The notes under the pieces are model-generated. The model was not told where the DNA came from, searched no databases, and saw only the letters and a list, made by a program, of their open reading frames with translations. Below, piece after piece: positions 39,703 through 46,606 of a stretch of 64,000 bases of DNA. This DNA comes from Diadema antillarum (taxonomy: Eukaryota): NCBI RefSeq assembly GCF_040938485.1, contig NW_027272820.1:310001-374000 (forward strand), read 5' to 3'. A program made the translations under genes and the position numbers. The first letter of the stretch is position 1, and every line of letters starts with the position of its first letter.

Positions 39703-39943
39703 GTACGTACACGCCACACGGTAGGGCTGAATTCACGAGTATAGATAGGCGAGCCGCCGTAGTATTAGTACGGACTCGCAGTGGTGGGGCCTATTTCACG
39801 AGTATGCCAGCGATAACGTCAAAAAAATAAAAGACTTCTCCGGACAGACGGATCTTTCTGTCTCTACTCTAGTTCTGCTCAGTCCCACAGCAGACAGACG
39901 GATCTTTCTGTCTAGTTCTGCGTACAGTCCCACATATAGACAT
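39703..39943 (+). repeat. 241-bp direct duplication flanking the Gypsy element, copy A
   Basis: Identical by eye to 46366-46606. Confidence 0.95.
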
Positions 39944-39944
39944 T

Positions 39945-41007
39945 GGTATTATTGGTACGGGCCTATGATGTAATACCTAACAATTACTCACCGAGTGGCT
40001 AACGGGACGACAGGGCTGAAGTAAGGTACCACCAGCAGGAATGGTAGCCGACCGTATGACAGTAGTGTATGGACTGTAGAAAACACCAGGGCACCAGTAG
40101 AGGTGAACAGTGTCCTTGAAATGGGTATTGCACTTCCCGAAATAATATGGACTAACTCCGAATGCACTTAGGGTGTCCGAAGACGACAGTGTCCCATGTA
40201 AATATGTACAAATGATCCAGCGACAGCGTGGAGTAGCCTCCGGGTGCCGCGGCTAGCACAAGCGAGGTTAGGATCCACCGCTGGAGCGCTGGGTCGAAGA
40301 ACTGCGAGGTCCCTGATAGAGTCTGCACACCACCGACAGCACGCTAGCAGGACCGATGCAGCGATGTAACGACGCGAATCGCGTTGAACGCAGCTACGTA
40401 GAAAATCCCCAGGTTGGAGTGTAGAGCATGAAGAAAGGGCGAGTCGCGGTACAAAAAGGAGCGAATGTCGCGAGGTATGAAATCCGAGGAAGTGTAATAT
40501 TCCGTATGAAATGTAATAATCCGTAAGAAATGACAGTCCACGGCGCGAGGTATCATGCGCGAGAAAAGGCGTGGGAAGTAATATACGGACGTGATATGCG
40601 GACGTGAGTGACTCCAACGATTAGAACGTGCTCTCAGGATGAAAGCTAATCGTGAAGTGAGGAAGCGTGGAAAATGAAACAGCGTGGTCGGAGAAAACGT
40701 GTCACGGACAGGAGCTTTGAGAGTGGTAATTGGCTGGTGACAGTGTACAGCTCGCCACTAATTGGTAGGTTGTTTCCGTGACAGCAAAACAAGAGGTGTG
40801 TTTATGAAAATCCGACTACTGTTGGAATGTGAAATACGCGTACCTCGGCACGATGACAAAAGGCGGAGAATGTAGTGCGCACCTGTCATGTGTCGGCGCA
40901 CAAAGAAAGTTCGCGTGGATGTTGACAAAATACTGGGGTCGCCAGACAGCGTAATTTACAACAGCCAGAATGCCAGACAATATGATACATAGTAGAAAAC
41001 CGCTACA
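39945..41007 (-). repeat. 3' LTR (lacks the terminal TACA-3')
   Basis: Matches 45303-46365 at a constant 5358-bp offset; starts TGTAGCGG on the minus strand. Confidence 0.95.
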
Positions 41008-41012
41008 TTTAG

Positions 41013-41021
41013 CCCCCTTCC
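41013..41021 (-). other. Polypurine tract
   Basis: GGAAGGGGG 5 nt upstream of the 3' LTR. Confidence 0.75.
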
Positions 41022-41108
41022 AGATCGCTAGTAGAAGGTCAATGAAGTGAAGACTAAAAACAGGCGATCGATATGAATGAAAGGTAAACAAAGTAGTGGT
41101 TGAAAATC

Positions 41109-44366: not shown

Positions 44367-45229
44367 TGCTGGGCGTCATCGCCGAACTTCCAGTGGTAGT
44401 AACACTCACTACCGGCGTGGCGCTGTTTAGAGTCGGCTCGCTTCCGTGAAGAACCACGCGACCCGCTTCCACGGCCGCGGTTGCTGCCTCGGGACCGCTG
44501 GCGCCCACGCTCGTCGAGACGGGAAGCTATCGCGTACACCTGTGTCGTCAGCATGGCGACCTGTGCTGTGAGGTGCGCTACGGGATCTGCCGCCGGGGGA
44601 CTGGGAGACGTCGGTGGGAGAGTAGCCGACGGAACGGAGAAAGGCTGGGGCATGGACGGCGGAGCTGTCACAGTAGCGACCGATAGGGGCGTGGCGACCT
44701 CTATGATTTTGTCCGCCAATTCAGCGACCTGCTCAATAGAGACTTCCGTGGATGTGGAGGCCAAGATCTGCTGAACGTTGCGTGGTAAGCGCTGCAAGAA
44801 CAGCTGTTTCAAGATGCTGTCTTCCAAGGTCGCGTCGCCGAGCAGCTGCTTCATACGACGAAGGAGTTGTGAAGGTTTGCGGTCGCCTAACTCCTCCGCT
44901 GTGAGTAACTGGTGGAGCCGCCGCTGCTCCGATACGGTCGTCCGCTTTATGAGCTCGGCCTTCACCTTGTCATACGCGTCGGTGGTGGGAGGGGAGATTA
45001 TGAATTCTCTCACTTCCTGTGCGATCTCCGGCTGCAGGGAGGAGATTACGTATGCGAAACGCGTCTGCTGAGTAGTAATACTCCTGGTGACGAATTGCGC
45101 TTCCACCTGCGCGAACCAGAGTGCGGGATCGTTCGGCCAGAAGGGAGGGAGCTTGAGGCTAACCGCCGTGACCGCTGGCGTGGATGTCGCGGCAGCCGGG
45201 GTGGCGTTACCCTCGTCGCCGTCGGCCAT
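44288..45229 (-). CDS. gag: Gypsy Gag with CHCC motif
   Basis: [39 protein letters not shown]; 313 aa, intact. Confidence 0.95.
44306..44312 (-). promoter_or_regulatory. -1 ribosomal frameshift slippery heptamer G GGA AAC
   Basis: X XXY YYZ in the gag frame; a -1 shift gives GKRPSQRL, the pol frame. Confidence 0.8.
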
Positions 45230-45279
45230 TGTAGAAGTGAAGGAAGGAGGATGAGAAGACGTGAAGTCGGCCCTAAACT

Positions 45280-45297
45280 ATCACGTCGGGGTCACCA
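45280..45297 (-). other. Primer-binding site for tRNA-Trp
   Basis: TGGTGACCCCGACGTGAT 1 nt after the 5' LTR; complementary to the eukaryotic tRNA-Trp 3' end. Confidence 0.9.
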
Positions 45298-45298
45298 A

Positions 45299-46365
45299 TG
45301 TAGGTATTATTGGTACGGGCCTATGATGTAATACCTAACAATTACTCACCGAGTGGCTAACGGGACGACAGGGCTGAAGTAAGGTACCACCAGCAGGAAT
45401 GGTAGCCGACCGTATGACAGTAGTGTATGGACTGTAGAAAACACCAGGGCACCAGTAGAGGTGAACAGTGTCCTTGAAATGGGTATTGCACTTCCCGAAA
45501 TAATATGGACTAACTCCGAATGCACTTAGGGTGTCCGAAGACGACAGTGTCCCATGTAAATATGTACAAATGATCCAGCGACAGCGTGGAGTAGCCTCCG
45601 GGTGCCGCGGCTAGCACAAGCGAGGTTAGGATCCACCGCTGGAGCGCTGGGTCGAAGAACTGCGAGGTCCCTGATAGAGTCTGCACACCACCGACAGCAC
45701 GCTAGCAGGACCGATGCAGCGATGTAACGACGCGAATCGCGTTGAACGCAGCTACGTAGAAAATCCCCAGGTTGGAGTGTAGAGCATGAAGAAAGGGCGA
45801 GTCGCGGTACAAAAAGGAGCGAATGTCGCGAGGTATGAAATCCGAGGAAGTGTAATATTCCGTATGAAATGTAATAATCCGTAAGAAATGACAGTCCACG
45901 GCGCGAGGTATCATGCGCGAGAAAAGGCGTGGGAAGTAATATACGGACGTGATATGCGGACGTGAGTGACTCCAACGATTAGAACGTGCTCTCAGGATGA
46001 AAGCTAATCGTGAAGTGAGGAAGCGTGGAAAATGAAACAGCGTGGTCGGAGAAAACGTGTCACGGACAGGAGCTTTGAGAGTGGTAATTGGCTGGTGACA
46101 GTGTACAGCTCGCCACTAATTGGTAGGTTGTTTCCGTGACAGCAAAACAAGAGGTGTGTTTATGAAAATCCGACTACTGTTGGAATGTGAAATACGCGTA
46201 CCTCGGCACGATGACAAAAGGCGGAGAATGTAGTGCGCACCTGTCATGTGTCGGCGCACAAAGAAAGTTCGCGTGGATGTTGACAAAATACTGGGGTCGC
46301 CAGACAGCGTAATTTACAACAGCCAGAATGCCAGACAATATGATACATAGTAGAAAACCGCTACA
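45299..46365 (-). repeat. 5' LTR, 1067 bp, TG...CA
   Basis: Minus strand TGTAGCGG ... ACCTACA. Confidence 0.97.
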
Positions 46366-46606
46366 GTACGTACACGCCACACGGTAGGGCTGAATTCACG
46401 AGTATAGATAGGCGAGCCGCCGTAGTATTAGTACGGACTCGCAGTGGTGGGGCCTATTTCACGAGTATGCCAGCGATAACGTCAAAAAAATAAAAGACTT
46501 CTCCGGACAGACGGATCTTTCTGTCTCTACTCTAGTTCTGCTCAGTCCCACAGCAGACAGACGGATCTTTCTGTCTAGTTCTGCGTACAGTCCCACATAT
46601 AGACAT
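46366..46606 (+). repeat. 241-bp direct duplication, copy B
   Basis: Identical by eye to 39703-39943; continues into the original flank CCATGTCCC. Confidence 0.95.

Follow-up and report, generated by a model that had tools for sequence, protein, structure and literature searches.

The window analysed here, a stretch of 64,000 nucleotides from Diadema antillarum (contig NW_027272820.1, positions 310,001 to 374,000), contains a Ty3/Gypsy element of 6.4 kb with CsRn1-type marks on its minus strand. Host DNA is duplicated on either side of the element, and an ISL2EU-type DNA transposon of 11.5 kb lies to its left. The features, by window position, are as follows.

28127..39664, no strand assigned: young ISL2EU-type DNA transposon with AAGCC/GGCTT ends, an AT duplication, and THAP-HTH-DDE_Tnp_4, YqaJ and SAP frames
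39703..39943, plus strand: left host copy, identical to 46366-46606; 39708 and 39909 differ from the single copy on contig C495
39944, plus strand: junction T, which was either added or belongs, as first base, to an LTR end with a 3-nt deletion
39945..41007, minus strand: 3' LTR with a shortened U5 end (LTR bases 5-1067), identical to 45303-46365 at 1063/1063 bases
41008..41022, minus strand: polypurine tract, TGGAAGGGGGCTAAA, immediately before the 3' LTR
41109..44375, minus strand: pol frame (protease, RT, RNase H, integrase), 1088 aa from stop to stop with no internal stop; YIDD
44288..45229, minus strand: gag, 313 aa with no internal stop; DUF7041 and a C-x2-H-x9-C-x3-C motif
45280..45297, minus strand: primer-binding site, TGGTGACCCCGACGTGAT, separated from the 5' LTR by one base (45298)
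45299..46365, minus strand: complete 5' LTR, 1067 nt, TG...CA, with a precise U3 junction at 46365
46366..46606, plus strand: right host copy, running on into host DNA as in the empty allele

The element and its junctions

The pol frame displays the domain order of Ty3/Gypsy elements, protease, RT, RNase H and integrase, with Pfam matches to RVP (53-132, E 1.7e-4), RVT_1 (250-409), RT_RNaseH (477-607), Integrase_H2C2 (690-745) and rve (762-857). The direct TG...CA LTRs, the primer-binding site (which we take to be that of tRNA-Trp), the polypurine tract and the absence of an env frame are likewise those of a Ty3/Gypsy element, and no other frame of at least 200 aa was found within it. The gag and pol frames overlap by 88 nt, with pol in the -1 frame, and the overlap contains GGGAAAC, presumably a slippery-site form; expression of gag/pol probably involves frameshifting. 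An 18-residue stretch of gag carries the CHCC motif (CX2HX9CX3C) of the CsRn1 clade. By these marks, the Gag motif and the layout, the element can provisionally be classed as CsRn1-type. Because of the positions of the primer-binding site and the polypurine tract, the right LTR is the 5' LTR, U3 is the end with the precise junction, and the alteration affects U5 of the 3' LTR. The identity of the LTRs and the intactness of gag and pol, both noted in the original prediction, were confirmed over 1063/1063 bases and by the lack of stops inside either frame. Zero LTR differences correspond to a divergence below about 0.28% (95%), and five other family copies compared are 95.5-98.9% identical in the best alignment of each.

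Sequence comparison of the host copies revealed no mismatch, bearing out the predicted perfect duplication (241/241 bases). The identical run reaches 242 if the A at 39702/46365 is counted, which is a host base on the left and the last LTR base on the right. The predicted precise TG end at the right junction was also found, the complete LTR ending at 46365 with CCGCTACA directly followed by GTACG. At the left junction, where four terminal LTR bases were said to be replaced by one T, LTR bases 1-4 are indeed missing and a single T (39944) stands between the host and LTR base 5. The accompanying claim that the att CA is gone holds under one parse only. Read as TG + GTATT, the same bases represent a 3-nt deletion just inside the end; the element strand is still CA-ended, and the element runs from TG to CA within an exact 241-bp duplication with zero extra bases. 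At the level of the sequence, these two parses, with the CA lost or with 3 nt deleted and the CA kept, are equal readings. Each boundary of the duplication falls exactly on one end of the element: the first duplicated base adjoins the precise U3 junction, and the last adjoins the altered U5 junction.

The junction bases at both ends are known from one assembly alone. The left junction was also compared with assembled contigs of four public runs, which possibly derive from other individuals and in which rare forms are lost. Among the matches listed (32 pieces from the 4 runs), there was no contig bridging the left junction and no joint, a result that neither supports nor opposes the structure. 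The ordinary LTR start was present in 4/4 runs, and a 740-nt contig in two runs leaves the duplicated stretch at its end and continues in other sequence.

Empty alleles and target duplications in the family

Contig C495 is collinear with window positions 1-28126 and 46365-64000 at 98.6-100% identity and probably represents the other haplotype in the assembly. The empty allele that the original prediction had proposed to look for is present on it: C495 contains a single copy of the 241 bp, without the element, followed by the same downstream DNA. Both window copies have T at 39708 and 39909, where C495 has G and C. Because they share these two variants against C495, the second copy must have been made from the element's own haplotype, and the shared variants also argue against a haplotype mis-join. 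The left copy (39703-39943) is probably the newly made one.

The neighbouring transposon, also missing from C495, ends 38 bp to the left of the duplication, and these 38 bp match the empty allele. Its AT duplication and its THAP-HTH-DDE and YqaJ frames are ISL2EU marks, as described in a passage of an earlier paper (PMC4482050). The transposon is considered young because 8/8 copies compared are 99.7-100% identical over 1.6 kb.

Target duplications in the element's family were surveyed with a U5-side pattern (76 matches), a U3-end pattern (65 matches, about 10 being expected by chance) and a DNA search (42 matches). Copies with the same flanks were merged, and ten pattern-match regions without an element were removed as chance matches, leaving 50 other insertions readable at both outer ends, two of them (L090 and L136) by eye; the survey is blind to copies that have lost both the U5-side and the U3-end patterns. 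An exact duplication was present in 45 of the 50 (44 of 4 bp and one of 5 bp), and three had a 4-bp duplication with one mismatch. The 4-6-bp target duplication of Ty3/Gypsy elements is therefore seen in 48/50 other insertions, all at 4-5 bp, but not in the window copy with its 241 bp, which is the exception and not its family. Because the empty allele on C495 is single-copy and the family norm is 4 bp, the duplication is not due to chance.

The tabulation of duplication length against end integrity, suggested originally, also brought out one more long case, C668. This copy (207-bp duplication) and C705 (no duplication) are the two odd insertions among the 50, and both are odd at the U5/primer-binding end. 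With the window copy included, long duplications amount to 2/51 and odd copies to 3/51, each of the three being odd at U5. As the window copy entered the count by selection, the unbiased rates are 1/50 long and 2/50 odd. One outer end only was found in 11 independent copies. No flank duplication adjoined the break in the nine of these that were tested on the broken side, the other two lying near contig ends. The 3/3 odd copies hint that U5 is the end that fails; this is a small number, the 11 one-ended copies not being scorable.

All three odd copies have empty alleles in the same assembly. C668 is an internally deleted copy with a precise U3 end and a 207-bp duplication on its flanks, and its empty allele, C163, has a single copy of the duplicated stretch. 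At its U5 end, which is formally intact, the host sequence goes on with bases identical to those at the LTR start. The host there matches the unprocessed U5/primer border over 4 nt including the preceding base, as do approximately 2.9% of nearby host positions, and on this side the alignment to the other haplotype is unbroken for 1.6 kb. Nine extra bases occur only in the duplicate beside U5 and are absent from the other duplicate and from the single-copy allele on C163. Such an extra would be expected if the U5-side duplicate was newly made; it may also have come from later mutation, because the two LTR parts of C668 differ at 3/243 bases. In C705, the LTRs differ at 1/1065 bases, the U3 end is precise, and the short duplication is absent. 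Its U5 end is merged with host DNA resembling the LTR tip, as seen from the empty allele on C1068. Host-like subterminal bases are present in both LTRs of this copy and at no other place in the genome, for which later LTR-LTR conversion is the only explanation that we can offer. Their presence in both LTRs suggests that later editing of ends occurs in the window element's family.

Probable one-ended integration and its alternatives

We consider it likely, with a probability of about three in four, that integrase joined the U3 end alone and that the U5 end was attached by host repair at a distance of 241 bp. This reading is favoured because of the empty allele, the boundaries lying at the element ends, the same-haplotype copies, the 4-bp norm and the layout of C668. 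As in aberrant integration, one junction is precise and CA-ended (at 46365), whereas the other end is truncated or extended, with host DNA duplicated up to it. The recent one-ended integration completed by host repair that was proposed originally is thus consistent with everything tested, including the empty allele and C668.

In such an event, integrase would join the U3 end at 46365/46366, and the U5 end would stay unjoined. A host polymerase, primed by the free cDNA end or by a free host 3' end, would copy the 241 bases from the same chromatid or its sister. The ends would then be sealed via a few bases of homology, with the LTR tip trimmed and U5 attached at the far end of the stretch. More tentatively, retention of primer-derived bases, which is possible at U5, might be why this end fails, and the join might be guided by 4 bases (ATGT/ACAT) that match the unprocessed U5 end. 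The timing, the enzymes and the reason for the U5 failure are what we infer.

Direct microhomology, usual at this end in the ASLV/HIV model, was not found at the left, host-made junction of the window copy, which speaks against one-ended integration. The homology seen there is inverted: the junction word ACATTGGT (8 nt, comprising four host bases, the T and three LTR bases) is the U5/primer-binding-site border in inverted orientation. Simulated junctions reach 8 nt in 1.7-3.6% of cases, and the match, noticed post hoc, is marginal. It suggests, and is only suggestive, that the junction T may have been templated in brief inverted pairing with the cDNA tip. Each of the two long duplications has the same 4-nt word at its far boundary, in direct orientation in C668 and in inverted orientation in the window. 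A second templated reading (ATTGGTA, LTR bases 11-17) was weaker, with 5-10% of simulated junctions reaching 7 nt, and an A shared by both long duplications just before their start was discounted, since A also precedes 13/36 ordinary exact duplications.

The original prediction regarded a defective LTR end as the cause of the event. The sequence does not show this, as the U5 of the other LTR is intact and that of C668 is formally intact despite a 207-bp duplication. A single minus strand gives rise to both U5 copies of an element. Given that common origin and the ordinary end of the 5' LTR, a mutant U5 end in the donor is ruled out. Because the U5 copies share one minus strand, the other U5 is intact, and C668 has a long duplication without damage, the U5-end damage is probably a result of repair and not its cause.

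Sequence cannot date the duplication relative to the insertion, and a later break may have been caused by the second young insertion, which lies on the same haplotype at a distance of 38 bp; both points count against one-ended integration. An ordinary 4-bp insertion may accordingly have come first. The left junction would then have broken, perhaps through the action of the ISL2EU-type transposon, and template-switch repair would have added 237 bases copied from the far side of the right LTR while trimming the tip. The two young insertions lie on one haplotype and neither is in C495, the same-haplotype origin of both host copies is predicted by this route too, and C705 hints at end editing after insertion. 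However, the break would have to fall exactly on the junction, two template switches would be needed, the 38 bp between transposon and duplication are unchanged relative to the empty allele, and C668 has the same layout with its U5-side alignment to the other haplotype unbroken for 1.6 kb. We regard this order of events as unlikely.

Integrase could instead have joined both ends without concert, 241 bp apart, with U5 lacking three bases but still CA-ended and with fill-in producing the duplication. The TG...CA parse, with its exact 241-bp duplication and no extra base, suits such an event, and uncoordinated staggered breaks were proposed by the XMRV authors for a 273-bp case, in the passage concerned (PMC2857682). 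That parse depends on a T at the junction, expected by chance about 1 in 4, and C668 exhibits signs of repair in its 4-nt host match and its 9-bp extra of synthesis type. One intasome, moreover, keeps the two ends a short, fixed distance apart, as a passage on retroviral integration states (PMC5041404). Two uncoordinated integrase joins are therefore quite improbable.

Perfect identity of both the host copies and the LTRs, at junctions known from one assembly, would also be compatible with an assembly artefact in which the flank was doubled by a join between the filled and the empty haplotype or by a chimeric read. Yet the left copy has the variants of the filled haplotype rather than those of C495 and follows a transposon that C495 lacks, the join offers no overlap usable by an assembler, and C668 repeats the layout with non-identical copies. 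An artefact is very hard to credit on these grounds. Pseudo-duplication, by recombination between two insertions 241 bp apart or by insertion into a tandem duplication that was already present, with a deletion afterwards, has been proposed for long HERV-K duplications (PMC5488345, in part), but it can practically be dismissed here, as the empty allele carries one copy, two insertions within 241 bp are improbable for a family of tens of copies, and two intact ends, probably with unlike LTRs, would be predicted.

Comparison with known integration systems

The comparisons below draw on passages of the cited papers. A very similar case is XMRV clone C-3, where a 273-bp duplication was seen at 1/15 sites; one LTR end there has lost 5 bp by deletion, the other end being normal (PMC2857682). 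The norm for XMRV is 4 bp, as in the window family. Unlike the window element, XMRV is an exogenous gammaretrovirus studied in cultured cells, and its damaged end is U3 with the CA lost; the window insertion is inherited, altered at U5 and formally CA-ended (PMC2857682). In aberrant ASLV and HIV-1 integration, integrase inserts one end and host enzymes the other, with hundreds to thousands of bp duplicated and with viral or host bases copied onto the aberrant end (PMC5041404). One normal junction and an often truncated other end are shared with the window, but those cases arose with mutant ends, under integrase inhibitors or with a weak integrase (PMC5041404). The bad end there usually has short direct homology (PMC5041404); C668 has this over 4 nt, whereas the window copy has no direct match and only the inverted 8 nt. 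For HERV-K (HML-2), eight listed sites with flanking duplications of 13-450 bp are given among an estimated 451, and empty alleles were confirmed for the 250-bp and 111-bp duplications (PMC5488345). These are natural inherited insertions with long duplications, like the window copy, but they are old retroviral insertions, mostly solo LTRs, for which the authors allow later rearrangement (PMC5488345).

Among Ty3/Gypsy elements, members of the CsRn1 clade (CsRn1, PwRn1, Boudicca and AgCR) have a CX2HX9CX3C Gag, a primer site of tRNA-Trp type and a 4-bp duplication, and an overlapping -1 gag/pol arrangement like that of the window element is among their known forms (PMC2582038). The LTRs of the window element are longer, at 1067 bp against 381 bp in PwRn1, and the passages on this clade describe no long duplications (PMC2582038). 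Tf1 can insert independently of integrase through host annealing of cDNA ends via single-stranded primer-site DNA, so that, as may have happened in the window, a cDNA end of Ty3/Gypsy type is joined by the host (PMC11042837). That route needs homology to the primer site or the purine tract and uses no integrase (PMC11042837), whereas the window copy has one integrase-looking end and its host DNA has no long primer-site match. Our literature search, in which subscription journals were thinly covered, found no published long duplication for a Ty3/Gypsy element.

The window copy is a real and well-supported case of a known integration accident in a Ty3/Gypsy family, accompanied by a second case, and it reveals no new element or enzyme. 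It extends the retroviral repair route to an env-less Ty3/Gypsy family whose insertions are natural and inherited. The 2/51 long and 3/51 odd copies provide a first rate for such a family, close to the HERV-K and XMRV figures.

A broader reading, which we regard as rather doubtful, is that half-site integration plus host repair is a routine second pathway in this family, in which about 1/20 insertions fail at the primer-bearing U5 end and are sealed at an ATGT-like match some 200-250 bp away, lengths of this class also occurring in XMRV (273) and at some HERV-K sites (206, 250). If this were true, the 200-270-bp class might reflect a chromatin or replication-patch limit, and LTR finders requiring a 4-6-bp duplication would miss such host duplications genome-wide. 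Copies of the kind described here double more than 200 bases of host DNA and are missed by annotation filters that insist on a short duplication.

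Host repeat occupied by both young elements

An older dispersed repeat carrying a degenerate 66-bp subrepeat served as the landing site of both the Gypsy element and a young, multi-copy ISL2EU-type DNA transposon, and its empty site is matched straight across by other copies of the repeat. The transposon, which is flanked by an AT duplication and encodes THAP-HTH-DDE, YqaJ and SAP frames, ends 38 bp from the 241-bp duplication and is absent from C495, the contig taken as the other haplotype.

27845-28126 and 39665-39809, older dispersed repeat
28127-39664, ISL2EU-type transposon
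32356-32915, 560-bp palindromic repeat inside this transposon

Family copies with an unusual target or duplication

A second long duplication, of 207 bp, accompanies the family copy L110 (G000:C668:293214-295502); its length is 216 bp in the copy adjoining U5, versus 207 bp. In the empty allele of this site (L162, on C163), the sequence is itself split by an insertion of 3154 bp, which has inverted ends and is accompanied by a TAA duplication. Comparison of the family copy L136 (G000:C705:386500-392200) with its paired empty allele, L143 on C1068, revealed a target site similar to the LTR tip. Both LTRs of L136 contain host-like bases, which are present in no other family copy.

Short and rearranged family copies

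Many two-LTR copies span only 3.2-3.5 kb and have 4-bp duplications (L091-L093, L095, L102, L108, L125, L130, L132 and L137); these are probably non-autonomous derivatives, because their length is insufficient for gag-pol. The tandem copy L090 (G000:C37:3760500-3766500) comprises three shortened LTRs (~360 bp) within one 4-bp duplication. Two pairs of solo LTRs, L097/L098 on C171 and L184/L185 on C23, each share identical flanks on the same contig, with members megabases apart and in opposite orientation, representing either large duplications or assembly doubling.

Additional window features

The inverted repeat pair and the palindromic repeats listed below are probably non-autonomous DNA transposons.

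1924-2109, 6872-7076, 15119-15684 and 25991-26747, palindromic repeats
50123-51075 and 53625-54572, 960-bp inverted repeat pair, 91%
23416-24288, minus strand, 290-aa open frame with many charged residues
48210-48528, 15-bp tandem array
48720-48794, tRNA-Thr(GGT) predicted by ARAGORN
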